Shown piece by piece: positions 11,801-55,663 of a stretch of DNA of 64,000 bases. Every line of letters begins with the position of its first letter. The stretch's first letter is position 1. The position numbers were made by a program, and so were the translations under genes. The DNA comes from Laetmonice hystrix (Eukaryota): the NCBI GenBank assembly GCA_965235115.1, contig OZ249436.1:36148001-36212000 (forward strand), in the 5' to 3' direction. The notes under the pieces were generated by a model. The model had not been told where the DNA came from and did no database searches. It saw only the letters and a program-made list of their open reading frames with translations.

Positions 11801-14800
11801 AAGAACATCGAATACGGCCATCCAACGATTCCCTGTGTGATCACTCGAATTTAAATCAACGTCAGGTATTTCAATTACGTACTGAACGAAAATACAAATT
11901 GTGACAAGGTAAATTGGGGTCTTGATGTTTTATTATAAACAAATTGTATGGAACCAAAAAAGCAAAGATTAATTTGTCATTTCGGACTTTGCGAAAGTTA
12001 CTAACTATTCTACCGGTTCCAGTGCCATTTCTGTGTTTATATTTGAGTGGATTTCCACGTGAGTGAGAGTCTTTTTTGGACAGCCCACTTTTTTATATTA
12101 TGTCGGTGGGTGTGTGGGTGTGTTTTTGTGGACAGTCCACTTTTTTATATTATGTCGGTGGGTGTGTGGGTGTGTTTTTGTGGACAGTCCACTTTTTTAT
12201 ATTATGTCGGTGGGTGTGTGGGTGTGTTTTTGTGGACAGTCCACTTTTTTATATTATGTCGGTGGGTGTGTGGGTGTGTTTTTGTGGACAGTCCACTTTT
12301 TTATATTATGTCGGTGGGTGTGTGGGTGTGTTTTTTGTGGACAGTCCACTTTTTTATATTATGTCGGTGGGTGTGTGGGTGTGGGTGTTTTTTTTTTTTG
12401 GGGGGGGGGGGGGGGTTAAAGTACCTATATAAGTTGAAGACTTTAGCTGCATGCTTACTGAAGGATGTTATTGTATATTGACCTTATGACAGCTGATGAC
12501 GCTGCAGGAATACTCACTGTCGGTGACACTGAAGACGGCAGCATGGACACCACACGGTCGGCCTCTTCAAGACGTTGGACATTGGATGAATGGCAGGTTG
12601 AGCCTCCACAATGTCCTCTTCCCTAGCGCTAGGTACGGCCTGAATGGACGTCACTTCAAGGTGTTGACAATAGAGGTGTGTAAAATATTTCACGTCTCTG
12701 CATCGGGGCCGCATTTAATCAATCTGTACTTCCTAATCCAATGTGTCCCGATTGTCATCGTTTCAGTGGCCTCCTTTTGTAATGAAGGACGAACACGTAA
12801 ACATCACTTCCTTTTCTGGTTTTTGTATGACCGCATTGGAACTTTTGTCGAAGACCCTCAACTTCAGGTAAGTATGAGATAACTGTTTAATCGAATCCTC
12901 CTTGTACTTATGCCTATATTTCCAGTTTTGCAGAAGAATTCCATCCGATCCTTGGAAACGCGTCTCTTGCCCTTTTTTTCAGCTACACGATCAAGGCGGT
13001 CCCTGACGGTCAGTTTGGAGGCAAACTGGCCAATGGTAGCTGGACGGGATTACTGGGACAGCTAACCTCGAAGGTAATATTTGCTCTTACTACCCCTATT
13101 ACCTCTTACTATGCTATTATTTTGAAATTCCAAAAAATTCTAAGTTAATTTTGAAAAGTGAATTTATGCATATAGGCCTACCCATGGAATATTAAAAGAA
13201 TGGGGGGGGGGGGGAGGAGGGGGTGTGAATTCTGGTAACACTACCTTTTATTTTAGGCACTCCTCGATTCTATTCTTAGGTCATGCACTGAATGTGACTC
13301 AATGTTTAAAGTGCCTTGTTTTACATTATTAGAAGGCCGACATGGTGGTAGCATCATTGACAGTGTCGTACGACAGAGAGTCGATGATTGACTTCGTCAA
13401 GGATTACTACGTTGACTATATCACTGTCCTTTACAGGCGGCCAGACAACCAACTCGAACATATTTCTCTCATCACCAAGTCACTTCGGTAATCTCAATGT
13501 GGAATGAAATAACATAATTTGTTAGAAAGAAATGGTTTCTTATCGAGATTGAAAAAGATTGTTGTTTTGAGGGAATGAAATATAATATATTTCTCTCAAT
13601 CTACACCTCTTTAGTGGCGCAGGGTATCGAGTACTTCGGTCATTCTGCGATTATATATAGTATAGATTTATTTAATTTGTTTAAAGGTCATCATAATTTT
13701 AAAAGGATGATCTATTGATAAATCTCGTAACCGTTACTTTTTTCGTGGATGAAAGCAAATGAAGTAAGACGGAATACACCGAGCTGTTAATCGTTATTAT
13801 ATAGCCCACCACCTATTGGCTGTATTGTAGGTGGGAGGTGTGGTTGGGCGTCGGAATATTCGTGCTCGTGGCAGGAATCAGTCTCAGCTTTGTCTCACGT
13901 CTGCGGGGATCTACTAAAGTTCAAGTCTCCCCTAACGACAGCGGAGTACCTAAAGCTGCATCCCCAGTTTGTCGAGGTTGTCGACCAAAGATCACGGCTG
14001 GGGCTTTGGTTTCTCAGAGTGATAGAAGTCTGGCACACCTTCCAACAGGGATCTGGTTTTCTTTCGGGGCCATTCTGCACCAAGGTGTGAAAATATTTGA
14101 TAGTGTCTGCTGGTGGTATTTATGCAATGTGGTAATCGTATGCTTTTCACATGGAAGAGGGAGGGCCGTATATCTTCATCTTTAAACAATCTGTAAGTTG
14201 ACTGAAAATAGTAATGTCGATTTGCTTAAGCAAGTACCAGGAGGTGTTAATTTCAGTGTCCAATTAAAAATCCCCGGGGACAGTACCCCCTTGCCTAGTC
14301 AGTCGTCTCAACAACAATTTGACACTTGGTGGAATTTTGTGTTGCTACATGGCGTAAGCTCTACCGCAACCGTTGTCAGCGTAGATCTACAGTTTTTGAG
14401 TGTCGAGTGCCATCTGTAATAGAAACATCCTCAGTATACATCACGAACACACAGGCGGATGACGAGTGTTTGTTTTATGTCAGGTAGTGAAGTGGTGCCT
14501 GTCGGTCAACCCGGACGATGCATCTTCTCCTTCTGGTTTCTCTTCTCCATGGTGATCGGAGCGACGTATAGCGGCAACCTGATCGCCTTTCTCACTGTTG
14601 ACAAGTCCAACCCTCCTTTTAGGACTCTGAATGAACTTTGTCATCAAAACCAATACATGATCGGAACGCTTGGGGGATCGATCTATAGTGACATGCTCCA
14701 GGTGAGGGAACAGGCTAATATTACTAAAACATGCAATAAAGAAATTCAGAGAACACTGTGGACCGGTATCAAATTATCTAGGGGAAGTCCGACCTCTAAC

Positions 14801-15655
14801 GTTAAAGGTCTCATCATAGGCATATTTTACACTACACGCCGTCCATATTCCAAAATTTCCACTGTCTTCCACTGGCTAAGAAATACTTTGGTCCATCTTC
14901 CAATAATTTGCAGTACTCCACCAGCGCCACCTACCAATGTTTGTGGGAAAAGATCCAGGCGTCTGTTGAGATTGGACTCCGCGTGACCAGCACCAACCAT
15001 ACAGAACATGCTGAATGGGTTCGTGCCGGCGGCTATGCGTATGTGGTAGACGAAGTGGCCAGCAAAAATGAGATTCTCAAGGACCAGGAGCTAGCCATCT
15101 TGGGCGAGGCCGTCTCGACTTCACCATACGCTATAGGCCTTCAAAATAATTCTGCCTACAGAGAAGCGTTTTCAGATGCGTACGTTTACTTCGTGCAATT
15201 CAGTAGGCCTTTAAGGGCTTAGTATAAAATAATGCAGCATATAGGCTAAGTCTAGCGAAAGAGGTATAGATAGGCCTACGACAGCTTGGCAGAGGATGCT
15301 ACAGTATTCACTTCTCTGAATAGAGGGCCAAGTCTTCGCAAGGCCAGTCCATCTTATACCAAGCTGACCTCCCCCCCCCAAAAAAAGGACCCAGCTTATT
15401 TATGTATCCGATTTTTTATCTAATCACCCGACTTTTCCTTCAAGTGTCCAGAACATGAGAGATACGGGCCTTCTACACAAGTGGCAGACCGACATGTACC
15501 CAGCGTATGTCGGGAAGAGAAGCTCGACACCCAGCCGTGCCATCTCTATCGCCATCATTCACATGGAAGGATTGTTTCTAGCGGCGTCCGTCCTGGTCGT
15601 CTTGGCCGGGTTTATTCTCCTTGCAGAGCGACTTCATCACCGACCTGTCCCATGA
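8828..15655 (+). CDS. Divergent ionotropic glutamate receptor / IR-like gene B (complete, ~13 exons)
   Basis: Exons 8828-8930 (signal peptide MKERVVLYELCLSTFLWIVLL..), 9968-10102, 10480-10713, 10977-11164, 11345-11512, ~12508-12675, 12767-12867 (WPPFVM..GFC), 12983-13073 (DGQFGG..NGSWTGLLGQL), 13333-13487 (ADMVVASLTVSYDRESMIDF), 13831-14084 (M1; pore IWFSFGAILHQG), 14484-14701 (M3 ATYSGNLIAFLT), 14914-15179, 15445-15655 (MRDTGLLHKW, M4, stop). All phases are consistent. Confidence 0.9.
12072..12388. repeat. Minisatellite, 52-bp unit x6 (intron of gene B)
   Basis: GGACAG recurs at 12078, 12130, 12182, 12234, 12286 and 12339. Confidence 0.95.
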
Positions 15656-18446
15656 TTGTAGCGGAAATCCCTGATCAGGGTACTGACGACTCCGTAGGGG
15701 TGGACAAACAATAAGGTCTAGTGCATAGCCAGGAAATAGAAATAACGCACAGCTTGATCAGGGGCATGCATGCCCGAGAAAGTTTCTCTGACGTGCCTCA
15801 CGTGGTCACGGGCCTGCTTAGGCCTATAGTACGATACATTGTATATGATATAATTTAATGTATAATTAAAGCAACCACTCAAGATTACGCAAGACCTGTA
15901 TCTATATATCGTATGGAGCCGCCCACATCAGCTATTGACTGGAGTTCTGCATCGTAGCTTTGGATATAGGCTAGTCTATAATAGTAGGCCTAAAGGCCTG
16001 TCCTGTCGTATCCATCCTTTAAGAGTTGTGCACCTTTTAGGAGTTCCGGTTCCACCAAACCTTATTATCACGCAGCAGTAAAGCATGGCAAACCCCATCA
16101 AGAGTGTGTCTGGTTGTCGATGATGAATTGATGGATTACGCTACTAATTCGTACATTACCTGAAATACAAACAGGAAAGACAACATTGGCGACATGTCGC
16201 CTTGGACACTTGCTCCGTAACATCTGCCTGGATTTAAATTAGGGGACTGATTGGAGGTTCTACAGCTGTGTTGAGCTGAGGATTCGGGAATCATTCTCTG
16301 CGTGCCACCTGCCACCTTGTGAGTACTGTTTTGTTTGTGATCGTGCCTAGAAAGGTAGCGGTTTTGGGAGGAAGATGGCTGCTGCTGCTTGTCATAACCC
16401 TCACCGTGCATTGCCACCGTTTGACTGTACTGGGGATGCCTGGGGGGTATCCCGCAGGTGAACAGACTGGTTGGATGAGTTTGAGTGCTATGCAGATGCT
16501 CTGAGACATTTGCACCGTGACACTTTTGAACATCGCACTAATTGCAAGGCCTCATTAAGATGACACTTGGGCCTGAAGGATGTAAGATCTACAGCATTCT
16601 CGATACTGGTGGGCCAGCATATTACGATACGGCCACCAATGCTTTGAGTAGCCACTTCAAAATGAAGACAAATAAGAGGTTCATGAGAGCATTGTTACGT
16701 GATATGGCGCAAGGGCTCGACGAGTCAATAGCAGAGTATGTCGTCTGCCTGATGAAGGCATCGGAAGGGTGTGAGTTCGGCGACGAAGTAAACTCCCACA
16801 TAGTTGACCAGGTGGTTTTGACATGCACTAATGGGACTCTCTGTGGGAAGTTCCTGGAGAGGGGGGGGGGTGAACTTGACCTCACTGTGATGCAATATAC
16901 CCACGTCAGTCAAGAGCCAGGCCAGCCGTATGCCTGCTGCTGTGGACAGCACTGTAAATCGAGTAAGTCGGGGTCCATGTCACCGAGATCGACAGAGAGA
17001 TAATACCCGGAAACCGGAGGATGGAGGGTGTAGTCGCTGTGGATCCCATAATCATGATGCATCTTACCACAAATGCCCAGTGATCGGACAGAAGTGAAAT
17101 TAGTGCGGAAAACTGACCACTTCGTCAACAAATGCAGGTCTACAGGCCAAGCAGATGGAAGAAACTTCCCATGTCACCGAGGGAAACGATAGAAGAAAAC
17201 CGCCCATTCGAAGTGTTGAATGCACGGCTTTCGACAGCCAGAAAACAGAGCGAGATCCTGCTTGTTCGGCAGCTGCATGGCTATGATCTGCCTAGCGTTT
17301 ATTTTACAGTATATATTAAAGTATAGTGGTCGGACTGCCGGCAGTCAGTTCCTCCCTTCTTCAGATGGCGATGCTAGAATTTAATTGGCGTTATCTGCCA
17401 CGCCGCCTCTCCAGAGATCAGGATAAGCCGGCCTGGCAAGGAGTACACCTGGCGTCTGGACATAGAGTACATTTCTAGAACCAACTCTACACATCAATAT
17501 TAGTTGTGAATAAATAAAAAATGTTACAATAAAGATACATAATAAATACGTCAACATCCCGCTATATTTTCTACAATCTGCAAGAAGGTAGAGGCCAAAT
17601 CAAAGAACTTCTTGAACAGGATATCATTGATCCAGTCAATGGACTGATGCCATGGCTCAGCCCAGTGAATGTCATGAAGCCAAGTGGGGAGATACGTCTA
17701 TGCATAGATATGCGCCGTGCGTCACCCCATTCTAACATTTGACGAGTCCCTACAGGATATGTCGCAGAGTCGTGTATTCTCAAAACTCGACCTAAAATGG
17801 GGTTACCATCAGCTGGAGCTCAAGAGACATCACAGCGTTTGTGGTACACTGTGGGCTGTATCGTTATAAACGCCCAGTTTCCGGCATAAACGCGGCACCA
17901 GAAATTTATCAGTGGGACATTTATCGTCTCCTATTGGGGATTTCCAATGCTGTCAACATCTCAGATGACATCCTAATCCATTGGAAGGACCACGACACAG
18001 CTCTCTGTTAGGTACTTGATAGGATTCGAGATGCAGGGATGACACTAAACAAGGATAAATGCAAGTTTGGTGTGGACAAGGTCACTTTCTGGGCCCACGA
18101 GTTGTTCAGTGACGGGATTGATCTTAGCAAAAGCAAGGTAAAAGCCACCCCAGAGATGAGATTGAGGTTCGCAGTTTCCTCAGACTCGCTGAGTTTTGTC
18201 GAGCCTTTATACCTAATTTTGAGTCGGTCGCCAAACCTCTGTATCAGTTGACACACAAAGGTCAGGAGTTTGTCTTCGGCAAGGCCCAACAAGAGGCTTT
18301 CAAGAGGATTAAGGGAAGTATCAGCAACCCCAAGACGTTAGGGTACTTCAGCCTGGGTGACAAGACACAAGTGATTGCTGACGCGAGCCCCCATGGGCTT
18401 GGGGCTGTACTGGGATGCATGTGTGTGTTATCAGGGATGCAAGCAT

Positions 18447-19767
18447 CCCTGATAACACACACACGTTGGTACAACTTTGGGCCGACGTCAGCAGCTACGT
18501 TGGGCCAACATCAGATGCCAACATTGGACCAACGTCATTTTGCTCATCGGACCCATGTTGGGCCACCAGATAGGCAAACGTTGAAACAGGCCATTGGCCC
18601 AGCATCAGACCAATGTGTGTACAAACGTTAAGCCAACGTCAGATGCCCGACGTTGGACCAACATTTTGCTCATTGGGCCCACGTTGGGCCAACAGTTGGG
18701 CCAACGTTGAACCAGCCAATTGGCCCAACGTCAGACCAATGTGTTTACAAACGTTGAGCCAACGTCTAATACCAACGCTGGACCAAAGTCAGATGCCCGA
18801 CGTTGGACCAATGACATGTTGCTTATTGGTCCCACGCTGGGCCACCTTTTGGGCCAAAGTTGAACCAGCCCATTGGCCCAACATCAGACCAACATGCTTA
18901 CAAACATAGAGCCATCTTCTAATACCAACGCTGGGCCAACGTCAGATGCCCGACGTTGGACCGACGACATTGGGCCCCGAGTTGGGCCACCAGTTAGGCC
19001 AACGTGTGGCACGACCTTCCTCCAACCCGAGCCAATTTAAATAGACTCCCAAATAAAATCCTGGCTCAGGCAGAATCATTGCGTGGGTACGCTATAGTAT
19101 CTCCTGTGCCAGTTAAGCACTGACGCATAACACCCAAACCCTGTCCTCACTATTGTTGTTTCCCATCGGAAATCCAAATTGGTCTTTTCTTTATTGGGTT
19201 GTTTAAAAACAAAATATAATCTCTACGTCCCTATCTTGTTCTTTTCTCACTCAAAAAAAAATAAAGCGTAATTTTACAGAATGAATAGCTGTTCTTGTAT
19301 TCGTGGGAATAACTTGAAGTCGCTAAAAGCTCACCTGGACTGTGTTTGAGACTGTCTAGTTAATCTTACTGATAACAGCGCCACCTAGCGCCTGCTAGGT
19401 AAAGAAGAATTCCAATGTTGGGACAACGTGGGTGTTCCAACTGGGTTCCAACAAAGAGGGTGGCGACAGTGTTGACTAATTACCAACGTTGGGCCAACAT
19501 GGATGTTCAAACCGGGTTCCAACAAAGAGGGTGACAACAGTACTGACTAAATGCCAACATTGGGTCAACTTGGTTGATCCAACAGGGTTCCAACAAAAAG
19601 GCTGTCGACAGTGCTGAATAAATACCAACATTGGGCCAACATGGATGTTCCAACCGGGTTCCAACAAAGAGGGTGGCGACAGTACTGACTAAATTCCAAC
19701 ATTAGGTCGACTTGGGTGTTCCAACCGGGTTCCAACAAAGAGGTTGTCGACAACGTCGGGCCAACGT
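18447..19767. mobile_element. Non-autonomous CACTA/EnSpm-like element nested in Gypsy pol
   Basis: CCC terminus (CCCTGATAACACAC) and two blocks of subterminal ACGTTGGGCCAAC-type repeats (18464-19005, 19411-19767) around a unique core; right terminus missing. Superfamily is inferred. Confidence 0.55.
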
Positions 19768-20887
19768 AGTAGTGAATGGAAGGCTGCTGGTAGTAACCAG
19801 CAGCCTTCCATTCACTCCTATGTTAACTTAACGATCTGGTTATTAACTAGCCTAAACAGCAGCCTTCCATTCACTCCTATGTTAACTTAACGATCTGGTT
19901 ATTAACCAGTCTTTAGTGAGACGGGCCATGAAATCGACCACAGCAGCAAGGACTTGTGAGGCCCTTTGTGAAATCTTTGCTAGGTTTGGCAACCCTCCCA
20001 CCATTAAGACTGAAGGCCCTCAATTCACCTCAGCTACGTTCAGTCAGTTTGTGAGGGGGGAGGGATTGCAGCATCATAAAGTCACACCGAGACATGCCCA
20101 GGCAAATGGGGAAGTAGAAAGACAGAATCAGTCCCTGAAAAAGAGGCTGCGTATTGCCCATTCCCAAGGAGCCGGATGGAAGGAAGCGCTTCGTAATTAT
20201 GTTTTAAAGCAGTATCGGGCCACACCCCACTCAACAACGGGAAAGTCACCAAGATGTTGTTTGGGTTCGACGTACGAACCAAAATGCCTTGGGGATCACT
20301 GGGGAGTTTGCCAACGACTTGGAAGTGCGCGACCGAGATGGCAAGGTAAAAGGCAAGGCGAAATTGTATGCTGATCAAAGGCGCAATGCTGCAGTCTCTA
20401 ACGTTGCACGAGGTGACCAAGTCCTTCTGAAACGCAATAACAAACTGGAAACTCCAATTCTCCCAGAGCCATATCACGTTGTGGCTAGATCAGGGAACCA
20501 GGTGACAGTGGAGTCACCTGCAGGGGTCAGGTATGACCGCAACACAACCCATTATGCGGTACGTCACTGAGACGTCGGATGCCGATGTTGACACCACCCC
20601 TCCAAAGCGTCTGGAACCTGCGGCTCCTCCAAAGTCACAGGAGTCAAAGTCATATTCTAGTTACTGCCGTTTTGGTAGGACACTAGATTAAGTGGAGGTT
20701 CCCATAGACAGCTTAAAACTTGTTGGCTGTGTAGTTGACGCCAAGCCTATAAGTGACATTTAGCTAAAGTTGCTTACAGTTTGAAGAGTTAAGACACGAG
20801 ACAGTATCGAATCCTAGTCACTGACTAAGTATGCCTATAAAGCAGGACTGCTAAGTCTTGGAATCCCTATGTAGGCCTATCCGTTCT

Positions 20888-22241: not shown

Positions 22242-23411
22242 GTAAGTAGAGCGACCTGATATTTCCATAAAGTCCATTCTTCCAAATCTGGCGATATAAA
22301 TAAGGCATGCACATAGTTGATATTTTGCTAACTATGTTTATATTGGAGCAAATTTGGCAAGCATTGCCACGGCACTGGCACTGACTTGACAGGCGAGTTT
22401 TGACACGCCAGCATGTGGTCGGATCAAGTTTCTATCACAACTTTTAGTGTGAACAGAATGGGGTTATGAGCTCCAGAAATATGTGATGACCCTGTGTCTT
22501 AAACGCATATGATTTGGTCGATTTGTAAACACATTATCAGAAAGTACTGAAACAGCAATCGTTAAATTTGGCGGGCAAGAATGATTGTAAATTTATTCGA
22601 CCTCTGTCTCTGATCTGACTTCGGGATGACAGCGGGGCTGCACGGTCTGTTGACGCCCCCCCCCCCGCCCCCCTTCTCCCCGGTCAGTCGCCCGGCACCA
22701 CAGCCAGGACTAGCTGGCACAGTCCGAGACTCAAAATTCCATATGTATCTGTTTAATGTGTATTGCAGGGATCAGGCTGGGTTTTGTGTGTCAGAGAATA
22801 TCTCATTATTTTGAAAGCAATGAGATTTTAAAACTTTAAATGAGACTGAAACCGTCACGGAGAGTGAGACCGAGAGGAAAATTTATGGGATTGTTGTTTT
22901 GATGAAAGAATATCTCGATATCGCGGGCCAATCTCGGCCTTATGTACTCACTTCTGTTTTAAAAAAAAAGCTTAAAAAGCCGAAAAAGTTGTTGGCGTAT
23001 TTTTTCTTGGAAAGTTTGGCTGTTCAAATGATTCGAATTTGCTTTTGTTGTTGTTGTGATGAGCAACTGTCTATAAACTTTATGGGCCTGACAGTAACTG
23101 ATGCTAGTGATGGTATAACAGACTTTGCCAGTGATTGTGTAAGAAAAAATTTTGAGGTGTGAAGATGACTGAACCCCACTGATGCCTGGTGCAACTTGGG
23201 TGTGGCAACAATGATGATTCAAGCTAGTTCATGTGTCACTGGCCAGTGAAAAATTGCACTAGAAAATGCATCTATAGTAGAGTCATATTTCCTTTACTTA
23301 AATTTAATGGTCCAAGAATGAAAATTATTGACAAAAAATTTGATCTTTTTTGATAATAATCTTAATCTATTTGGAATGCATGCTTTGCAATAGTAGGTAC
23401 TCTTTATAGAC

Positions 23412-25225
23412 CTGTATTTTTCTTTTGAAATGCACGGGCATCAGGGGTAACCCAATTACTTTGACAATGTCCCTAAAGAGAAAAGTTGTATAGTCCTCTA
23501 CAGGAATCGAACCCAGACCCTAAGATTACTGCACCCATTCGCATAGCATAAGGTGTCGACATCCATGCCCGCTAGGCCACCGCCACTCCCCTAAAAAAAG
23601 GAGCTTTGGTGGTCGAGCAGGACAATGGACCCTCCCCCCTACACACATCTTTTTTAAATGAGACGGAATCCATATTTTCCTAGTTAGAGCTACACATGAT
23701 TTCTACCGAACATTGACTGTTAAGGTAATCCTGGCACTGGCGTAGACTGTATTTTTCTTTTGAAATGCACGGGCATCAGGGGTAACCCAATTACTTTGAC
23801 AATGTCCCTAAAGAGAAAAGTTGTATAGTCCTCTACAGGAATCGAACCCAGACCCTAAGATTACTGCACCCATTCGCATAGCATAAGGTGTCAACATCCA
23901 TGCCCGCTAGGCCACCGCCACTCCCCTAAAAAAAGGAGCTTTGGTGGTCGAGCAGGACAATGGACCCTCCCCCCTACACACATCTTTTTTAAATGAGACG
24001 GAATCCATATTTTCCTAGTTAGAGCTACACATGATTTCTACCGAACATTGACTGTTAAGGTAATCCTGGCACTGGCGTAGACTGTATTTTTCTTTTGAAA
24101 TGCACGGGCATCAGGGGTAACCCAATTACTTTGACAATGTCCCTAAAGAGAAAAGTTGTATAGTCCTCTACAGGAATCGAACCCAGACCCTAAGATTACT
24201 GCACCCATTCGCATAGCATAAGGTGTCGACATCCATGCCCGCTAGGCCACCGCCACTCCCCTAAAAAAAGGAGCTTTGGTGGTCGAGCAGGACAATGGAC
24301 CCTCCCCCCTACACACATCTTTTTTAAATGAGACGGAATCCATATTTTCCTAGTTAGAGCTACACATGATTTCTACCGAACATTGACTGTTAAGGTAATC
24401 CTGGCACTGGCGTAGACTGTATTTTTCTTTTGAAATGCACGGGCATCAGGGGTAACCCAATTACTTTGACAATGTCCCTAAAGAGAAAAGTTGTATAGTC
24501 CTCTACAGGAATCGAACCCAGACCCTAAGATTACTGCACCCATTCGCATAGCATAAGGTGTCGACATCCATGCCCGCTAGGCCACCGCCACTCCCCTAAA
24601 AAAAGGAGCTTTGGTGGTCGAGCAGGACAATGGACCCTCCCCCCTACACACATCTTTTTTAAATGAGACGGAATCCATATTTTCCTAGTTAGAGCTACAC
24701 ATGATTTCTACCGAACATTGACTGTTAAGGTAATCCTGGCACTGGCGTAGACTGTATTTTTCTTTTGAAATGCACGGGCATCAGGGGTAACCCAATTACT
24801 TTGACAATGTCCCTAAAGAGAAAAGTTGTATAGTCCTCTACAGGAATCGAACCCAGACCCTAAGATTACTGCACCCATTCGCATAGCATAAGGTGTCGAC
24901 ATCCATGCCCGCTAGGCCACCGCCACTCCCCTAAAAAAAGGAGCTTTGGTGGTCGAGCAGGACAATGGACCCTCCCCCCTACACACATCTTTTTTAAATG
25001 AGACGGAATCCATATTTTCCTAGTTAGAGCTACACATGATTTCTACCGAACATTGACTGTTAAGGTAATCCTGGCACTGGCGTAGACTGTATTTTTCTTT
25101 TGAAATGCACGGGCATCAGGGGTAACCCAATTACTTTGACAATGTCCCTAAAGAGAAAAGTTGTATAGTCCTCTACAGGAATCGAACCCAGACCCTAAGA
25201 TTACTGCACCCATTCGCATAGCATA
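23412..25225. repeat. Tandem array, 335-bp unit x5.4, with a tRNA-like Pol III promoter on the minus strand
   Basis: Units start at 23412, 23747, 24082, 24417, 24752 and 25087 (partial). Copies are nearly identical (one substitution noticed at ~23893). Minus strand carries A-box TGGCCTAGCGGG and B-box GGGTTCGATTCC. Confidence 0.95.
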
Positions 25226-25639
25226 GGTCAGCTTTATAAATTGAGAGATTTTGCATTGTATTGATGTCATCATGATAATCATGAAAAATAAATGAAATTA
25301 TAAGGAATAAGGAGCCAAAGGAGAACATATTTTCTCTACCACCGTGTGGTCAGATAGTCAACCTTCACCCTCCCCGCTTCCTTTGCACATGAGTAGAGCT
25401 GGTTGTGGAGGTGGTCTGGATGTTGGAAGGGGTCCGAGTCCCAGCTGGCCACTAAGACCTCCATGAAGTGCATTATGCTCCATGGACGCTGGGGTAAAAA
25501 TGGATTCTCGACCACCAAGTAAGGGAGAAACACATCAATAACCCTATTCTGTTTGCTGTCCTAATCCAATGAGTGTGCCTGGTTTATTTTCTAACTATGT
25601 ACTATTATTGTTTGTGGCTCAGGTTCATTCTACTGGAGG

Positions 25640-28600
25640 ATGCCGGGGCTCAAAGTGCACGTGACATTGTCAGAGGCGCTGGAGGTGCGGGGCGGTCCCC
25701 TCCAGGAGGATGAGATATGGGGCGTCCTCTGTCAAGGAGCCCAGGCACTTCAGGATCTCTTCCTCACAGGTCAGTATGAACTCCCATACAATTAATTGTT
25801 CATTGAGTTGGTGTCATGAATCAGTTCCACATAGATGTTCTCTTAGTTTTAGTTTTACAGAGTAAAAGTAAACATGGACTAAGTAATCAGTTTGATGGTC
25901 ACAAGATGTCGTTTCTTTTTAATGAGGAACATGAGATCATGATTTTCTAATAAAGTTCACGTGATTAAATCAGTTTTTGCTAAACCCTTTTGCTAAAATA
26001 AGATTCAGTTGTTAGTACATGTACTATCTTGATGTTCGTAAGGGTGCCAGAATCTATAATCGTGAGAATAGAGTTAGGAGCAGCATGTTAACACATTGTA
26101 CACACCAGGACATGTTTGAACCTGGTTGGAGACCCATAATCCCAACTCCACTGTGGTCTGAAGGGTTAAAGATTGAAGGGTCAGGAAAGCTTAATGTAAG
26201 CCTCAGATGGTTTTCCCAGCATGACTGTAGAAATACAACAAAGACACCTCAGACATTAGATTGTTGCCGCCTGCATCTGATCATTATAAAGTAAACTATA
26301 ACCCACAATAGATTCCAAGTTGTATCTTACATGCCTGCCTAGAATCTAGGGAAATTGCCAAAAGCACCTTTTGCATGTATACTGGCCTTGTGGCAGATCT
26401 ACAGATGTGGAGGGCCAGTCACAATTAGGGCTAAAGTTAATTTTCCCCTAGATACTGTAGTCATTTCCAAATTTAAAACTGACTGTGTATGATTGGCATG
26501 TAAAATCCTGCCAGGTCTGTGAGTATCTGGAGCATCATGTAATGTTTTTGTGACATTCCTGCTGACTGTTGCTGACAGGTGAACTGAACAGTGAGGAAGG
26601 CCTGGGGTTTGCAATCTCACCAGACACGCTCATGTTATGTGCTGATGGACACGTGACCTTCGCAGAATCTTCCTTCGAGTCGGTCCGAAACAAGAATGTA
26701 GTGCCTCCCGAATTCTTCCCTGATACTCGTCCTTCAGATGCCATCCTTGAAAAGGTATTAGAAAGTTCACTTGTAAAAAAGGAAAATAATTATGAGTACC
26801 AGTACATTGTTTGACCGGTATGTGATTATTGGACATTTTGGTGTCCAGTTTTCATGGAACCATATCTGTAGGATATTGTTTTGTCATTATATGAGAACCT
26901 AAACATCAGAGTGCTTCAACCATAGTAGCAGGCTTGGTGTCGCAAAGATTTTTGCATTACATCTGGTAAATTCCTGATGTTTCTTCTATTGACCATTGCA
27001 GATGTTAGTGTTTGCTCTCGGGATGACATTGTATGAGGCAGCAGACTTCAAGCTCCCACACCATCAGGTTGGAATCTCTTTGTATTTATCAAGTTAGGAA
27101 TATGGTATATCTTCTAGGTAATGATTCAGCAAGTGATTTGACAAGAAATACTTTCTCTGCAGGGGAGAAAAAGAAGGAAAAATATAAATCATATCAAAGA
27201 AATAACAATTCTCAAGGGCATCCAGTGCCACAAAATGGTTTTAATGTGACTTTTTGTGATATTGTCCTTTTTCACCTTTTCTTATCCCATCCTGTTTTTA
27301 TGCCGTCTTCAGGGAAGGATAAGGAAAGTGAGACATAAGGTACACAAATATATGGTGGCAGATCTCAGTATCACTTTTTAGTGGGAAACATAAGGGAAAA
27401 GTGGTTATTGGGTAATTCCGTTACAGACTGTTCTTCCCCCCTTTACTTAAAGAATATATTTCAGTACTGGTGAATCGTCATTTTCGATAGGAGTATAACC
27501 AAAGAAAGGGCTTAAATCTTTCAGAGCATTAGGGTTATGTTATTTCCAAATAAATTTAGATACATGTAGAATCTTTTTATATTGAGGTTTGCTTTTTAAA
27601 AAACACTGCCTCCTAGCAAATTGCACATTTTTACACTTACTGAATAAATGATGTTTGATCTGCATGTGATATCCACGTTATCAACATCAGTTCACGATTT
27701 CTACCAGTAACTTACACTGAATTTTATCAAAGCAAGGAAGAATTTATTCATAAAAACATATACTTTTTCAGTGCTATCTAAAGAGAGATATACCTGGTAC
27801 TCACATCTCTTGTGACACAGCTCTCTTTTCATAAGCTCTTTCAGATAGGGAATCTCTTGACATGTTTGCAGCAGTTGATTTTCAAAAAAACTTTTTTTCT
27901 TTCAGTCTAGCTTGTAAAACACCTATGAAAACCATACACACTACTGCCAATGTACACTCAGTTTTAATTTTTGCACACCTACTTAAGGAAGTTTTGCCTA
28001 AAGGTTTGCTTTCATAGCCACCATAGATACCATATCTCACGTCATTATTTTAAAAAAAAATTTTTATTTGGACCCCAGCCTATATTTATTTGGCAACGCA
28101 GTACACAGCATGGATAGCATACAGATACAGATCACTATTTACAACCTACAATAATATGGCAGCCTTCAGTAGAATATTAACATGAAAATCACAGAGGCAT
28201 AATTTGACTGTTGGAGAAATATGGACACACATGTAAATCATTATATTTACCTATTCAAGAAATTCAGAATATTGGGTAATGATGATTCTTACCCTTTTAT
28301 TAATGCAAGATTTGCCCCTAAAGAAACTTATTTTTCATCTTTCACCACATACAGGAACTTTCTTTAAGTGCTGCTCTGGATGCCTTACTGAGTGGTATGT
28401 GTGAGGAGAGCACATCACTCCGCAGTTCTCTGGGACAGGTCCTCGAAAGCTGTGCCCATCATGCCCACACTGACCCGTACCATTTGCAAAACTCGCATCA
28501 TGTAACCAAGCTCTACAAACTAGTGTTAGGCAGTGAACAAATGGTAAGTATGGTAGTTGCTTAGAAATGATTCTAATTGTGAAGCTGTGCCAACAGACTG

Positions 28601-34600: not shown

Positions 34601-37600
34601 CCTCAGAAAAAATGGTTAAAAATGGTAATATTACGTATATTACGGAATGTCTTTGGAAATGTGGTCAGAGATTCTCCACAATAATATTATAATCACAAAG
34701 GATCCATCTGGTCTTTCTTTTGTAATGACGTCTATTGTATGAGTGTTAAAAATTTGAGATGGAAACTTGTTTTAATGTTTTTAGATGTGATTTCAGGGCA
34801 GGACAAGGTGCCACAGATGGAGAATCTACTGGTACAGAACATCGTAGAGATGATGAGGCATTTGTCTTAGGTGCAAGTATAAGATCCCATGATGGAACAC
34901 TCTATGCGAACGAAGATGAAACTATCTCTGGTTAGTGTATTTGCTGCTAGTTTTTCCATTTTTTATTAAAGCTTATAAATGTGGGGAAAAAGGCAAGTTG
35001 TGGGTAAGCATTGTATGAAGGTGTTTACCTACCATTATTTAATTATGAATCATATACCTAGTGTTTTGGGAAGCAGATGAGTAAAAGATTTAAGATTTTA
35101 AAAGGAACATTTTAGCAAACGTTAACCTTAATTCTGATTTATCATTTTTAAGATTCTCTGGCAATCCGCTTTGAACACCTGCCAGATTCCCCCGAGAGGT
35201 GCATCACTATTGTGGAACTTGAGAAAGAACCAAAGCATGGCATCGGCCTGACTATTGTTGGTGGGGAGAACACGGGTAAGCTTGACCTCGGTGTCTTTGT
35301 GCGGTCTGTTGACCGAGATGGACCTGCCGCTCGCAGTGGGAGGGTTCATCCTGGCGACAGAATTATTGCCATTAACGGGCAGAGCCTGGAGGGAATGCCA
35401 CATCATGTGGCCGTCGACCTCATCCGTGCCTCACCATCGCTGGTACAGCTAGTCCTCTCCCAGAACAAGGCCACCACTACACAGGGTGACTACGACAGTG
35501 AAAACTCGCCAAACAACAGCGAGACAGCTGGGGAGGGGATGATGGCTGACCGCAGGATGAGAGGTAGCCAGAGTGGCAGCAGTCGCAATGGAAGTCTCAG
35601 CTCTAGGCGGATTGATGGCCAGGAGACTGTGATAGACGACCAGGCAGCAGCGGCACACTTTAATGACGGGTCGTCGGACAACAGCTCAGACCTAGAGTTG
35701 GAAGATGTTGTGCCTCCAGAGGCTCTCAAACCAGATTACCCTCGTCACCACATGTCATATTCACCTAACCGTCCACAAGGGGAGACACGGGGTAGTCGGA
35801 CTGGCACGCCAGGCAAGGCAGATGGGTGGGCCCCGACCAGCTCAGCACACCTTGATAGTCTGACCGTCCAGTCAACACAACAGGCAAACACAGGTCAGTA
35901 AACAAAATATTTTCTTTATACAGTCTCAATATGACATGGTCCATGTAACATTTATGTCCGTGATTTTTGTCAAGGTCTTTAGGGACCAGGGCCCCGTCTT
36001 ACTAAGCATCGTTATTAACGATATAGTTAACTGCTGGTAAAGTAGGCCGTCGTCAAGGCGACAACCAGACAACGTTACAACATTAGCGGCACCCCCTCCC
36101 CAGTCGTTAAGGGGAAGGAGCACCGAAGCAAATCAGACCACTGCGCAGGTTTACGCGCATAGTAGGCCTACAGTGGCGCCCCAGTGGCACAGACAAGAAC
36201 TAGCAGTCACAAATCAGAACAGTCCTATTGTCATCACTCAGATACTGTGACGTCACAATACTTTTAGAACTACTGAACAATAGGGCCTAATTTCTAACGT
36301 CACAATAGTAGCCGGCCTGTACCACTGCCACTGGCCACAGTGTGACCAGCCATGGGAGGGGGGGGGGGGTGATTTGGGGCCCTTTTCAACATAAAAGGTG
36401 GTCACAGGGACACGTTTACCTGAAATGACATAGATGTCTTAGTTTATTTTGATGAAAATGGTCATTATCTTTAATTATAGGCCAAAACTGTATAAATACA
36501 TTCACCACTAATTAGTTTGTAGGAGCAAAAAACCCGAATTTTGGGTAAAAATGGGTAAATTTCCTACAAAAAAGGGGTCCTACCAAAAAAAATACCCTGG
36601 AATGGTATATTTTTTTTTACTGATTTGATGAGAGTTGGTCATTGTCTTTAATTTTAGCCAAAAAAAATATAACATTTACTACCAGTTTTCTCCTGTTATT
36701 GAAAAAGGTGGGATTTTACGATGAAAAATATATGCAATCACCTCGGCAAAAATACAAAATCTGAAAAAAAAGAGTTTAATCGGGATATTTTTTAGTACAG
36801 TGTGGTAGGTATGTTACATTTCAGTCCTTCTAGGTAAAAAAAAATATACATTTGATATTATTTGATGTATTTCTTTTGCCTGAAACGAGACATGGAAGTG
36901 CGTCAGAATTTGCCATATTTTCAGGGAGGGGGCAGTTGAAAAACCCCCATACTACAAAAATTAGCATGGAAGCATATCATTTTTTTGGTGATTATGTGAT
37001 GCTTACATGGTAATAAATTGAAAAAACTCAAAAAATGTCAAAGTTTACTACTGAAATTTTACGGTCCTCCTTCCCCTTAAGTTAACTAGACCATTCCCTA
37101 TATGCTACGCTACTAACTAGACCTTAGTAAGACGGGTTTTAACCAGCTCTAGTTAATAACGATTAACTAGCTATAAGTTAACTAGATCGGGCTTAACGAT
37201 GTTTAGTAAGACGGGCCCCTGGTCGCCAATTAAAGTCAAAGCTAACAATCAGGGTTTTTGGTCTGTTCATAGAGGGTTCTGATGGATACATTTCGGATGT
37301 TGAGTTGGATGAAGTGTTGCGTGGAGGGAGGAAGCACCAGCTTTTCGTGGGCCAGTCTCTGTCACCGGCCTTCCCTCAGACAACTCCACTGGGTTCCCAG
37401 CAAAGCTCTCACCGCAGTCAGTCTGCGCCACACAGCCAACTTAAATCAGGCGACAAGTACGAGATGGTGCTGCAGAAGATGCACAGCAGCCTGGGACTCC
37501 ATGTAACGGTATGTAGGAGTGAAAAAAAATCTCTCCACACCTGTACTCCTTCATTACCATTTTAAGGACTTTTCTTGAGCGGTCCCAAAATTAAAAGAGA

Positions 37601-40600: not shown

Positions 40601-43600
40601 GTGATGCTCATGTCATCTGTTTTGTTTTTCATTCGTAAACGCCCTCTGCTCAATCTTCAACTTCTGTGGTGTAAAATAAGCAGAATTCAGCAGCATTTAA
40701 CCTACAGTACAGTGTAACTAAATACTTAATGGTTGTAGGGCGTTGTGATTTCTATAATTTCTAAAATTGAAATTAGGCAGACAGGAAATTGTTAATTTGA
40801 GGGCAAACACAACGTTGGACAAGAGGTTGTCTTTATGTGACTTTACTAATAGAATAGGATTAGTGTTTTTGCTTTGGTTATTGCTTCCTGCAGTTGACTG
40901 GATTGTGTCCTGGTCTTGAATGTATGAAACATTGCTGGCATGTGCAACCTGGCTGTCTAGTCAAGTGATGCATTGCGTCATCTGTGAGCTGAAATTATAC
41001 ATGATGGTTATCAGTTACACGAGAGCCTTGCATGAAGTCGTAGTCAGTTATCAGACATTTGGCTGATAAACTGACTTACAGTTACCTTTAACTGTGTTTG
41101 GTGCCAATTTATATAAACAGAACAGTGCTTTGCAAAGCTGCGTGGATAATAAAAGTTAACGGCTAGCTATCCAAAGGGTTCGTCTGAAGGGTCGCCCTTA
41201 TGATAATTCCTGGGCCTGTGCTGTTAAGTTACCAATACAACGCGATTGTGTTTTTGTTATGATTGGTAATATTATCTTTGTTATCATGTATGAATGAGAT
41301 TAATTGAACGATCTGATATTATCGGGTATATAGTATTTGTATAGCAATGAAAACAATATTGCTTGAATTTTAATTAATAAATGTAAGGTGAGACTAACAT
41401 GGAAGTACATGTAATGATGATGGATAGCAGTATAAAACAAAGACAGGCCGGTGAGACGTGAGTAGTCATCCGACAACAATAACAAAACACTGGTTTGAGA
41501 GGGTGACGATCTCTGTTTCAGATACACTTAGGATGATTCAGCTGACGAAGGACATCAGTGGGCTGGGATTCAGTGTTATAGGGGGTAGAAACGTCCACCC
41601 TGACCCCCTGCGCTGTGTCACTCGGGTGAAGAAGGTCTTCCCCATTGGTGCTGCGGCCCAGAATGGTCAGCTGCAGGTCGGCGACGTCATTCTGGAGGTG
41701 AACGAGAAACCAACCAAAGGATTGTCATCTCATGTAAGTATACGCATTATAGACTTGGCCAGGCAGGGCTGGGAAGTAATTCTGTTGGAAAATTTGGACA
41801 GCTGAGATTAATGAAGTCTCATAAATCCAGGGATTATCATAAATTACCCATACATGCTATTTTAAAGCATTTTATTTATTTATTTACAGCTATTGTATTA
41901 AGAATAATTTACTTACGTGGAATTTTAAAAACTTTCTCGGCAGAGCCTTGATAATGGAGTAAAGCTCTGACGTAGCAGTGATGATGCAGCAGTACGGTAT
42001 ATAGAATATGTTTACCTCTGATTACAGGACACTGTGAACTTATTACGTACTGCACCACCTGAGGTCAGCTTACTCATATGCCGACCACTGGAGGGCACGC
42101 TGCCACCAATATCACAGTTGGTAAGATGAAAAGCCATTTTGAATATTGTATATTGCCTAACTTTCTCAAATCTCAATGAGGGTTAACTGCTTCAGCTAAT
42201 TGCCTAGTTTAATAAAATTTACTGTATTTAAGGTGTGCCCAAATAAGGGAAATAAAAAATAATTGTTTTATATGTTCATCTCATTGCAGTTGAATGAAAT
42301 AGACTCATCTCATGACTCATCTTTACGTGAGACTCCGATGTCTCAAATCACTAGTCCACCAATAACCCCCGGTATCGGAGAAAGGGGTAGGAATCCAGAT
42401 GGTGCTTCCCCCTCAGATACACCCCGTACCCCACCAGTCCAAAATAAAACCCCTACACCCCTTCGGGATTCAATAACAAAGACACACCATCACGATCCTA
42501 ACCAGCCAAGTGCCTTAGTTGATAGAGTAACTCCATCAGTAGACCACTGCACTGAACCCGAGTATAGTGATGACGAGGAGTCAAACATTGGCGACTCGGC
42601 ATCAGTCATCAGACTTCAGCCAACCCGTCATGCTCAAAGTGACAGCAGAGATCATAATGGCAGCCAAGAAGAGTTGAACTGTTCACTGGACAGTACAACT
42701 GGAACCGGGTGTAACAGACAGGAACAGCTGTCTAAGGTGAGGCAGGCTCCTTCAGAGGGCACAGACAGTGATAAAGTAGTAGACGTACGGTTAGACAAGT
42801 CACCGTCAGAAAACAGACATCCCAGCAATCACTACATGGCCCCGCAGGATGAACTCTGTGTAAATGGTGACACAGAGGAGGGCTCTGAGGAGGAAGAGGA
42901 GGAGGAGGAGGGACAAGGTGAAGATGACCGTGAAGAGGTTGTGGTGGAACTGGAGGAAGAGGAGGAAGAGGAGAATCTGAAACCTGGGGTGAGATATGAT
43001 TTATGATTACTTTAGATATTGCATTTAAATTCATTCGGCCAATGAAACATTTGATTTCATGTACCTGATAAAGATGTAATGCCCACTGGAGCATGAAACC
43101 CTACCAGATTCATTAACCAGTAATAACAACACCATTATATTCCAACTGCAGGAGTTTGATAACAACACCATTATATTCTGACTGCAGGAGTTTGATAACA
43201 CCATTATATTCCGACTGCAGGAGTTTGATAACAACACCATTATATTCCGACTGCAGGAGTTTGATAACAACACCATTATATTCCGACTGCAGGAGTTTGA
43301 TAACAACGCCATTATATTCCAACTGCAGGAGTTTGATAACAACACCATTATATTCCAACTGCAGGAGTTTGATAACAACACCATTATATTCCAACTGCAG
43401 GAGTTTGATAACAATACCATTATATTCCAACTGCAGGAGTTTGATAACAACGCCATTATATTCCAACTGCAGGAGTTTGATAACAACGCCATTATATTCC
43501 AACTGCAGGAGTTTGATAACAATACCATTATATTCCAACTGCAGGAGTTTGATAACAATACCATTATATTCCAACTGCAGGAGTTTGATAACAACGCCAT

Positions 43601-46600
43601 TATATTCCAACTGCAGGAGTTTGATAACAACACCATTATATTCCAACTGCAGGAGTTTGATAACAACACCATTATATTCCAACTGCAGGAGTTTGATAAC
43701 AATACCATTATATTCCAACTGCAGGAGTTTGATAACAACGCCATTATATTCCAACTGCAGGAGTTTGATAACAATACCATTATATTCCAATTGCAGGAGT
43801 TTGATAACAACACCATTATATTCCGACTGCAGGAGTTTGATAATTAACAACACCATTATATTCCAACTGCAGAAGTTTGATAACAACACCATTATATTCC
43901 GACTGCAGGAGTTTGATAATAAACAACACCATTATATTCCGACTGCAGAAGTTTGATAACAATACCATTATATTCCAACTGCAGGAGTTTGATGTTACCA
44001 TGACAAAGGGTGATAAGGGACTGGGCTTCACAGTGGCCGGTGGTCAGAAGACTGGCTTCTTCTACGTGAAGAGTATCCTGTATAACCCTGCCCTGTCTGA
44101 CGGCCGCATCCAGGAAGGTGACAGACTCATCCAGGTACCTGTTGAAATGTTGGTCTGGTAATAAATAGAAAAGGTGAAAATAATTATAATATGGAATTAT
44201 AAGTTGTAATATATGATTTTATGGAGTTAAGAAGATTTTCCATTGGGGGTTACATTATGAACCTCCAGGGTATGTGCCCCCAGATTAGAAGATTGAATTA
44301 TAATCTTATAAATTATAAGATTAAAGAAATAGAAAAGTGAACTCCAGATAGTGAATTATATATTAAGTGTGGCATTGTTTCCTGACTAGGTGGAAGAGCA
44401 GGACATGACAGATCTGAATCACAAGGAAGCTGTCAACTATCTTCGTCTGACTCCAAATACTGTCACCATCCGATTCTTCCGTCCAGTCCGGGTCGTCACT
44501 CCAACAGATGACCAAAACCACAAGACTGTCAAAAAGGTAATGTGCCCAGATTATAAGGGTTGCTTTTTAAAGCTCTCTTTTTTAATGTCTCAGAAAGTGC
44601 AAATCTGAAAATCATTGAGATTGCTAAGCCAGTGCCCTGGCCTACCGGTAATTGCAGTACAATATACTTCTTTTGATTACCGGTACATTCTCAAATATTT
44701 AGCAAGGGTGTGCCCAAGTCAGGCACCAACGAGCAGGCCCGCCTAGCACTGATTTTAGCTGCCCAGCACAAAACTAAAAGGGTTCAAGTGCTGCCGGGCA
44801 GGAAAATTTATAAGGCCCATCATCTGATAAATATGTGTACTTAATAACTTTTCATACCTTCTCTTGTTTATTCCATCATAAGACGCTAACCACTACGGGG
44901 GTAGGAAGATTTTATAAATTTCCCAACTCCAATTTCTTCATGAAAAATACTACTGCCGGCACTAAATTTTTCCTGGGCACATCCCTGATCTAGTTATGAC
45001 TTTAAAAAAATTTTCAGGTAAAATTTGCCCAAAACAACACAAGCCAAATGCCAAAGGTAACTCTTCAGGAAGCCAGAAAGGTACATTACTTAGAATGCAA
45101 ACTAGGCACCACAGGTCACTGCATGGAAATCTTTGAGAACTTGCCTCACAAAAACTATTTTTCTGATGCCGTCTATGTACACTTAGTCTCTTAGCTATGT
45201 TCACTGACCTGACCTTCATCTCTCAGTTTCTCATATGTAAACAGAGATGCAAAGGGATTGGTTATATAAATTCCGGAGTCGCTTGTCCTGTTGAAAGAGG
45301 ACTTTTTTCTTGTTATCTCAGATTCTACTGAATCCAGGATTCTCAGAATCATAGTGGCTAACCTTCCTCTTGATGAAAGGTGAATGTTATTGATGTTTTA
45401 GGTGTATTTTGGCTTTTGTTGATGTTTCATGAACAATAAACCAGGACCAAGGTTGTGAATATGCTCAGTTTGATGAAGAAATGATTGTGACGGAATGTCT
45501 GGCCCGATCAAGGTCCAGGGCCTGCAGCAGGACTTTCGAAAATAGCAGTTAGCTGTACATTCGGCTAGTAGGAATTAATCTAAAGCTAGGGAATGTGGTG
45601 TTATGAATCGTGCCCTTACTTCCAGACATGTGGTCATGTTTTTTCTAAAATAAAAGTAGGGAAAAAAACTGACCCTGAGATTTCATTGTTTGAACAGAAC
45701 AATAGTTCAGAACCTGAAGGCAGTGATTGCCCCCCTGCCGACCCCCCAGCAACAGCGCCGCCTGGTGGACAGGATGGGGGCAACTACCGATCTGTACGTA
45801 ACATGGTGCAAACACTGGAGGAGAGTCAGAAACTTATCCGACCTCACACGTACGGGCGCCGCCTGGAGGATAGCGAGGATGAGGACGATCTGGAGGTACT
45901 GGAGGAGAGGCACAGGAGCGGGATGCTGACCCCAACACATGACCTGGAAGTCCCCACTGTCGTCACCACTCCAGAGAAACCCCACAGAGGGCCAGAGAAC
46001 GGCAGTGAAGGTCGGATATCACAGGCCTCCTCCTGGGGGAACCTGACCCTTCCGATGCCAGAGGATGAGCACAACGAGGAGGTGAGACAGATTACTGGAG
46101 CACCTGCTACCCCGGTCCCACAGGAGGTGAGTCTGCTCAGTGAACGTATCACAGACAGACTACAGTGCAGTGATAGTAAGATCTCGTAACAAGTGTACAG
46201 TCAAGAATTATTTTAATCTGCCTTTCTTTGAATGAACATCTTCTGCTCTGAAAGTTTAAATGCTCATATTAGGAAGGTGGAGTAGAGGCAAGACACAATT
46301 AATGCCTTCATTAGATGATTCCTTCTGTATAATAGACTTTGAGAGTTAGAGTTACCAGGATGTCAAAAAAAACCATGTCTACAAAGTTTGATTTGTTAGC
46401 CAATTGGTTGGTATTGTTTTATTTTGCAGGCTGGAATAGTAAGAGTGAACCTACATAAAAAACCCAATGAGAGCTATGGTTTTAGTCTCATCCAGGGAGA
46501 GAAAGGGTCGGCCTCTGCCCTTTACATTCGCTCGCTGACACCAGCAGGTGCTGCTGCCGATAAAACCCAAATCCGGGTCGGCGACCGACTTCTCCAGGTG

Positions 46601-55320: not shown

Positions 55321-55663
55321 AAAACATTGGTCGGTGTATACCTTGCCTCTTTTAAGCAATTTCTTTAGGGAAACAGGAAATACTAATAATATCCGTGCAC
55401 ATATGGAACTGACGTCTCAAGAATTTCGTAGTAGAATTCTTGTCAAAACGCGGGACTATCATGGCAGACTATATGAATTGACAAAAAGAGATTTTACCAT
55501 TTTTAGCACGGTCCGATTTGACCGCAGTCATGACCACCGACAGTGAGTGGTGCAGTGGCTTGTTCAGCGGGTTTCTCACGTTCGCAAGATCAGCTTCAAT
55601 TACGACTGACTCTTCTTCCTTTTTTTCCCGTGGCTCTGCGTATCCTTTACTTTGTTCTTTAAT

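Follow-up and report, generated by a model that had tools for sequence, protein, structure and literature searches.

Between an ion-channel exon and a PDZ-gene exon of an animal with a 627-Mb assembly, a 335-bp sequence stands repeated head to tail, and the question that this locus raises is what copied the sequence, and from what kind of template. The window analysed here is a stretch of 64,000 nucleotides; a preliminary description of it, made from the letters alone, saw in the array a mobile element copied from circular RNA, perhaps with a new self-cleaving RNA. Our analysis indicates that the element is very probably a tandem retroelement with a Pol III head that depends on a Penelope-like element (PLE). 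A fuller reading, for which the balance of evidence is about even, makes it a non-autonomous union of a tRNA-type Pol III SINE head with the RT-start module of a Neptune-like PLE, whose arrays would be copied from a covalent circle closed without a ribozyme.

For the array TRF reports a period of 335 bp, 5.4 copies and 99% identity, and in a unit comparison the 4 full internal units are at most 1 base apart, which bears out the near-identical tandem structure first noticed. Unit positions are counted here from the G at 23742. The array and its ends are as follows.

23412..25225, minus strand (the sense, Pol III strand): one insertion of 5.4 head-to-tail 335-bp units (TRF, unit comparison, end mapping)
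23412..23415, minus strand: fixed 3' end, the putative internal RT priming site, RNA ACAG matching genomic CTGT (end mapping, genome junction count; PLE partner with the same end base)
23747-23750 and so on, minus strand: repeats of the priming site in each unit
25215..25225, minus strand: variable 5'-truncated end, at unit phase 144 (unit comparison, end mapping)

The array had been said to start and end in mid-unit; its right end is indeed random, but its left end is the fixed end of a family. The proposed 7-bp TSD did not hold up, as the two copies of CTTTATA (23402-23408 and 25232-25238) are flush with neither end, lying 3 nt off the left and 6 nt off the right, and the family mostly lacks TSDs. 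The neighbouring exons are those of a ligand-gated channel (14423-14983) and a PDZ gene (35152-35898); we take 25637-25770, about 410 bp right of the array, to be the probable first coding exon of a PTPN13-like gene, and it has no match in Pfam or PDB. The window also contains other minisatellites, at 12072-12383, 18497-19752, 43123-43993 and 55663-56477 (periods 52, 126/153, 71, 36 and 26 bp), and decayed LTR retrotransposon fragments at 16542-20374. DNA contigs from two runs of one sample, possibly the source material, bridge the unit junction, contig depth not being a measure of copy number; one flank contig that stops 6 bases inside the element may represent an empty allele, and one RNA run gave no coverage.

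The sequence is not confined to this locus. A search with the unit gave 235 matches in 40 of 493 candidate regions, and the 150 matches listed lie on 16 contigs. Exact end junctions number 1,880 genome-wide, a count that overlooks ends carrying C at one position of the flank and that is not cleared of local duplicates, and insertions number at least 1,880; internal unit-unit junctions number 2,323 and start/T-run junctions 2,663. The evidence supports the earlier view of a young, mobile, dispersed, RNA-templated and retrozyme-like element, and the genome-wide check of copies, phase and TSDs that it had proposed gave dispersed copies with one fixed end, the other end variable, and mostly no TSD. 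Among 36 loci, 61 of 67 segments have the fixed end at unit position 2-7, and 3 of the 6 exceptions are cut by the edge of the retrieved sequence; the opposite (5') end falls at any unit phase. The left flank is mostly CTGT, with C at -4 in 58 of 71 cases (the TGT was preset by the search pattern), the right flank tends to resume the target sequence, and target and RNA are identical over 3-6 nt at the junctions. A fixed 3' end, short target identity and a variable 5' end together point to target-primed reverse transcription of a minus-strand RNA. No simple-repeat tail was found at the 3' end in 88 insertions or in the 36 loci, the copies finishing at a unique site.

In a TSD census of 88 insertions, 36 show no duplication, 39 lie in tandem-repeat targets, 11 have one downstream copy of the left flank and 2 have insufficient flank. 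The 11 comprise one exact 82-bp duplication (L139), two more that are probable (L084 and L085) and a minisatellite-like remainder; rare long target duplications do occur among these TSD-poor insertions. The partial-tandem, 5'-truncated insertions are biased to micro- and minisatellites (the 39 of 88 in tandem-repeat targets), as are those of non-autonomous PLE derivatives.

The features that would drive transcription of the unit lie on the minus strand.

23569..23579, minus strand: Pol III A box (common and older haplotypes are nearer tRNA-Ser/Leu than the present copy)
23503..23513, minus strand: Pol III B box (sequence; matches genomic tRNA-Ser/Leu B boxes)
23481..23484, minus strand: T4 run beyond the B box, weak as a Pol III terminator (sequence)
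23592, also 23927, 24262, 24597 and 24932, minus strand: putative Pol III start, +1 A, unit position 186 (short-copy 5' ends; related SINE)
23593..23599, minus strand: T7 run just before the start, where a Pol III transcript from the start one unit upstream would terminate (the segment that varies most among insertions)
23593..23927, minus strand: predicted unit-length Pol III transcript, from the start at 23927 to its end in the T-run 23593-23599 (four complete such units)

The minus-strand A box, B box and T4 run reported earlier were all located, and ARAGORN found no tRNA in the whole window, in agreement with the statement that the boxes belong to no real tRNA. Their A-to-B spacing is that of an ordinary SINE family in the same genome. 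Among short copies, 5' ends cluster at 176-188. This interval includes an A at position 186, which precedes the A box by 13 nt, and the same (A)GGGG also marks the beginning of an ordinary SINE that has TSDs, a head of related sequence and an identical A-to-B spacing. The head is Ser/Leu-like and closest to that of the ordinary SINE (local score 74, against 60 and 47). This tRNA-headed SINE is abundant and has TSDs (1,458 candidates; L230-L236), and may be donor or sister of the head of the 335-bp element. Upstream of another SINE head (L222) a stretch looked related, but it was rejected, scoring 34.5 against a shuffle maximum of 39.

The T-run before the start has 5 to 7 T across copies; neither this run nor the pairing of the RNA ends, described below, is mentioned in the preliminary description. 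Since the run lies directly before the Pol III start, a transcript that passed the T4 would have the length of exactly one unit, and the priming site would fall in the middle of the RNA. We infer that Pol III starts at position 186, passes the weak T4 and the PLE module and stops in the T5-7 run, giving a 335-nt minus-strand RNA; passage of the T4 would be necessary for that RNA to contain the priming site.

A search of the genome for the GIY-YIG domain returned 124 matches, mostly to one 759-aa ORF that lies in 5.57-5.61-kb tandems at many loci; a young example of this PLE forms perfect 5.6-kb tandems of up to 7 units (L214:1739-7319). Its 5,581-bp unit contains a TATA box (684), a minimal hammerhead of type I (727-766) and an upstream ORF of 839 aa with NADAR and GDSL/SGNH domains, which the RT plus GIY-YIG ORF overlaps. 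The UUUAAAC-type sequence at the overlap into the RT ORF is presumably a slippery motif, suggesting a -1 frameshift. Pfam places the RT first in ORF2 and GIY-YIG at its C-terminus, and the two domains are joined by a CX2-5CxxC cysteine linker such as Neptune/Nematis elements have. This motif is described for EN+ PLEs in PMC8557442, and an esterase ORF has been reported for Neptune-like PLEs of fish and molluscs (PMC5408684). The partner thus appears to be a Neptune-like EN+ PLE; a NADAR domain in any PLE was not found in our literature search.

About 100 nt just 3' of the ORF2 stop are common to the PLE and the 335-bp unit and extend to both sides of the fixed end (BLAST, alignment).

23707..23807, minus strand: ~100-nt PLE-shared module spanning the priming site, whole only across a unit junction, with three candidate helices (BLAST, alignment)

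By pair counts the module helices differ between the PLE and the 335-bp unit by one two-sided change only, and the SINE version of the module folds no better than shuffles (z +1.4; PLE version, z -2.5). All 19 distinct PLE 3' junctions (19 of 19) lie within a few bases of the same ACAG, several of them in the same minisatellites. Of 16 mapped PLE 5' ends, 2 fall at 714 and 771 (promoter, hammerhead), 2 upstream of the promoter, and 12 are scattered. Because the ~100 nt, the end base and the targets are shared, we consider the PLE the mobilising partner, on which the 335-bp element very likely depends; similarity at the 3' end and the same insertion end as an autonomous PLE are features of a non-autonomous PLE derivative. 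The same sharing of sequence, end and targets underlies the next step, which is strongly inferred: the partner's GIY-YIG endonuclease would nick DNA after (C)TGT, often in minisatellites, and RT would start inside the RNA at ACAG. An anole PLE initiates internally in vitro, at an AC-rich site, and its hammerhead is dispensable there (PMC11167929).

No LINE partner emerged, there being no shared tail in the top 30 RVT_1 loci of 4,701 candidates. A second PLE family, with a 789-aa ORF (L213), was rejected as partner since the shared module is absent from it. That RT plus GIY-YIG family, found at L213 (C17:23000-32999) and at the contig ends of C2, C5, C6, C12, C15, C18 and C21, is possibly a subtelomeric PLE. 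A dispersed minisatellite family of ~34 bp is a hot target of both the 335-bp element and the PLE (for example L035, L042, L140, L159 and L161), and its loci often hold several insertions each. At one PLE array the same allele of the 335-bp element is found at both ends in opposite orientation (L198:6501-6906, L199:4353-4758), which suggests that insertion duplicated the target in inverted orientation.

Helitrons, too, typically leave dispersed tandem arrays that lack TSDs and share one fixed end. In these traits the family would suit a process at the level of DNA, either a Helitron-type rolling circle or the spread of a satellite by circular DNA, but 5' ends are concentrated where Pol III would start, and both end and targets are held in common with an element that encodes RT. 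These facts largely refute a DNA-level origin, to which we attach hardly any credence.

The preliminary description, which had recognised no canonical hammerhead, HDV, twister, pistol or hairpin core, suggested that the element may use a different processing or self-cleaving RNA. We found no ribozyme either. A relaxed hammerhead descriptor, with one extra core base allowed, gave 0 matches on both strands of a unit dimer, and the same descriptor detects the hammerhead of the PLE partner; short core motifs of twister, pistol, twister-sister, hatchet and hairpin, used without a positive control, were absent. The proposed Infernal search of Rfam matched neither a ribozyme nor a tRNA in the array, a weak negative, because Rfam likewise missed the partner's hammerhead. 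A loose HDV descriptor, run without a shuffle control, gave 2 overlapping minus-strand matches that start inside the tRNA head, away from both fixed points, and these were set aside.

Were an unrecognised self-cleaving RNA to cut at the fixed end, near a GUC, with RtcB circularising the monomers as in retrozymes, arrays that end at the same point on both sides might be expected, and 4 of 41 multi-unit arrays in the best-hit set do end at phase 3-4; the GUC triplet is present there and its flank is conserved with the PLE. However, the GUC is not kept in the PLE partner, which has GUG, ends at the same base, and carries its own hammerhead ~760 nt from its fixed end. Ends at phase 3-9 are also expected by microhomology, because the site resembles the target, and cleavage at the fixed end would give no reason for 5' ends to cluster at the Pol III start. 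With no descriptor match besides, we judge self-cleavage very improbable; an internal RT start shared with the PLE accounts for the fixed end without it.

The positions at which copies stop bear on whether the template had an end. The sample consists of 88 insertions kept from the first 100 ends listed on contig C1, duplicates removed. Copies of less than one unit make up 57 of the 88, and 41 of these end at 111-188, 17 of them at 176-188. Stops at 176-188 occurred in 17 of 59 first passes and 1 of 37 later passes (Fisher p 0.001), and stops at 111-188 in 41 of 83 and 7 of 43 (p 2e-4), whereas the control interval 189-335 showed no difference (11 of 42 against 11 of 34; p 0.62); in all these comparisons any array expansion after insertion would inflate the later-pass counts, and neighbouring insertions are not independent. 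The 5' end phases of 29 multi-unit copies fit a uniform spread (KS p 0.41), with 1 of 29 at 176-188. That stops are concentrated in the first pass indicates that short copies derive from an RNA whose 5' end lies at the start site, and arrays from a template that has no such end. This fits a scheme in which linear RNA yields dead monomers and end-joined RNA yields arrays. On linear RNA, RT would run off at the Pol III start and leave copies of up to 182 bp, which are seen; as neither the terminator nor the module's downstream half is present in them, they would be unable to propagate. If a protein ligase, and no ribozyme, had joined the ends, RT could circle and write 1.x to n.x identical units, which would be the live copies, and long arrays may grow further by unequal recombination.

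Comparison of units within 26 arrays gave a divergence of 1.9% within an array against 4.6% between arrays. In 17 of 26 arrays no unit departs from the others at any of the 21 diagnostic sites, even where the allele is a rare one, which fits a single-unit template. In 9 of 26, units differ at diagnostic sites, and some combine old and young haplotypes; against the circle, such mosaics would need later nesting, conversion or template switching if each array came from a single one. Mosaic arrays would be natural if the same PLE and priming site were used but the arrays were copied from long linear RNA read through existing arrays, by Pol II entering upstream or by leaky Pol III, and then expanded and homogenised by unequal recombination, with no circle, a route that we consider possible though doubtful. 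Arrays of 16 and ~30 units exist as possible donors, the ~30-unit array on C6 has higher-order patterns of local expansion, and a similar scenario, with an mRNA of multiple copies, has been proposed for the anole PLE (PMC11167929). Read-through by Pol III would still stop at a start, however, where the multi-unit copies almost never end, and read-through by Pol II should sometimes carry donor flank, but by eye no phase and flank are shared between unlinked loci. Each rare haplotype that fills an array would also need its own homogenised donor, and a terminator at the start, with the end pairing described below, would be left unexplained.

Repeated units might also arise without a covalent circle if the PLE RT jumped, repeatedly, from the 5' end of the linear 335-nt RNA to the U-tail of the same molecule. 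PLE RT is related to telomerase, and bacterial RTs that synthesise repeats reportedly do so by template jumps. Jumping would use the same panhandle and junction as end-joining, first-pass stops at the start would be expected, and bacterial RTs are reported to make repeats from a non-coding RNA template (PMC12039810). It should, however, give an equal chance of stopping on each pass, but the observed values are 29% on the first and 3% on later passes, and the length of the junction is nearly always identical within an array. Both objections weaken if the arrays expanded after insertion; on the whole we think jumping unlikely.

The end-joined template that we favour would be assisted by pairing of the RNA ends, which is predicted to bring the U-tail beside the first base.

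23568..23620, minus strand: panhandle, the last ~28 nt being the imperfect reverse complement of the first ~25 nt (fold, haplotype comparison)

In the fold predicted for the second unit, the U-tail meets the +1 A at the apex of the panhandle, with -30.6 kcal/mol and z -4.21, and 0 of 200 shuffles were as good. Over 14 equal-length haplotypes (of 30), 97.6% of cells are paired, a value reached by 3 of 500 shuffles, and one C-G/U-A pair, the one compensatory change, covaries. Because the haplotypes are related, these results are suggestive only of a real end pairing. The whole unit folds no better than shuffles (z -0.9 and -0.7). What had been called an unrecognised structured RNA resolves into the PLE-derived initiation module and the end panhandle.

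The start/T-run junction has 9 alleles in 33 insertions and carries 2.34 bits, compared with 0.20-1.64 for eight control segments. Several alleles have A residues adjoining +1, like a tailed Pol III 3' end, and within an array the junction is mostly constant. Variability between arrays with constancy within them agrees with closure of a circle at a tailed Pol III 3' end, and the T7 run (23593..23599) would be the site of joining. Part of the variability could be slippage, since the junction is the longest homopolymer; some alleles interrupt the T-run yet have spread.

To join a Pol III 3'-OH to the 5' end, the triphosphate must first be trimmed to a phosphate, after which a ligase such as RLIG1 could act. 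The genome has 29 matches to RLIG1-family genes, of which 11 are near full-length and intronless. In vitro, RLIG1 is able to close open hairpins, and its reported distribution is chordates and some molluscs (PMC9931718). The loci examined are as follows.

L224:4314-9999, at C1:3.42M: RLIG1
L225, at C7:9.77M: RLIG1
L226, at C5:32.26M: RLIG1
L227, at C13:18.87M: RLIG1
L228, at C2:38.99M: RLIG1

At 4 of these 5 loci RLIG1 lies near a packaging-ATPase-like ORF, and at 2 near an integrase as well; the copies thus appear to sit in or beside Maverick/Polinton-like elements, a link not found in the literature search. Their presence shows a supply of ligase, not its involvement with the 335-nt RNA. We tentatively put forward a class of ribozyme-free "Pol III retrozymes", with self-paired ends, sealing by a Maverick-encoded, RLIG1-type 5'-phosphate/3'-OH ligase, and rolling-circle copying by a PLE from an internal site, though such a class seems to us rather less than probable. 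If true, it would represent a natural route to circular RNA without splicing or ribozyme, and a dependence linking three mobile elements.

SINEs are classically parasites of LINEs, and the passengers known for PLEs are mainly hammerhead-bearing retrozymes. Here a SINE head is tied to a PLE by direct evidence of sequence, end and target, and the ribozyme has been dropped; a literature search, with Repbase, Dfam and most subscription journals outside its reach, found no such tRNA-headed, ribozyme-free PLE passenger. Where the passenger has a Pol III start and terminator the PLE has a TATA box and hammerhead, with the same end pattern, so the pair forms a natural experiment on the role of the PLE hammerhead in setting unit ends and on whether PLE tandems arise from circles. 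The shared module of ~100 nt would pinpoint the RNA element needed by a Neptune-type RT, and the 335-nt RNA offers a substrate for testing internal priming, rolling-circle copying and the ligation of Pol III RNA ends.

Several known systems resemble the element in part. PolIII/TAN, OAX, Rana/polIII and Hy/polIII are orphan tRNA-related tandem repeats of amphibians, whose mobiliser and ends PMC10702118 does not describe. Like the 335-bp element they consist of tandem units measuring a few hundred bases, part of each unit is tRNA-like, and no ordinary SINE matches them (PMC10702118). Ribozyme-free end-joining could explain such orphan repeats of animals, OAX and PolIII/TAN among them, and under the model OAX, PolIII/TAN and Rana/polIII should each share one fixed end with a PLE. 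With tRNA-derived SINEs, as defined in PMC10702118, the element shares the A/B-box head, a partner-derived region, 5' truncation and short copies bounded by the Pol III start and the 3' end; it differs in having a PLE instead of a LINE as partner, internal priming, no tail, mostly no TSD, and a permuted tandem as its live form.

Among PLEs, the Anolis Poseidon element PAc likewise starts RT inside the RNA at an AC-rich site, forms tandem loci and can dispense with its hammerhead in vitro, but PAc is an autonomous element that cleaves AT-rich DNA and primes with no homology (PMC11167929). The non-autonomous Chlamys element MRC1 is a known tandem-forming PLE derivative (PMC8557442); it belongs to another PLE clade and another host kingdom, and the accessible text of PMC8557442 mentions no tRNA-derived Pol III head for it. 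Schistosoma Sm-alpha and Sj-alpha also carry a Pol III promoter in a tandem unit, and their single copies too need a tandem neighbour in order to propagate (PMC6765202). Unlike Sm-alpha, which has an active hammerhead (PMC6765202), the 335-bp element would have its unit ends set by Pol III start and stop, and its partner is identified by sequence. The defining mark of the non-LTR retrozymes of animals is that every unit carries a type I hammerhead (PMC7229834; 10.64898/2026.07.22.740005). The 335-bp element has in common with them non-coding units in the range of 170-400 nt, dispersed head-to-tail arrays, homology to a PLE terminus and a proposed circular RNA template, but its unit lacks the hammerhead and has an internal Pol III promoter and terminator. 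What the 335-bp unit has in common with its PLE is the site of RT initiation and not the hammerhead.
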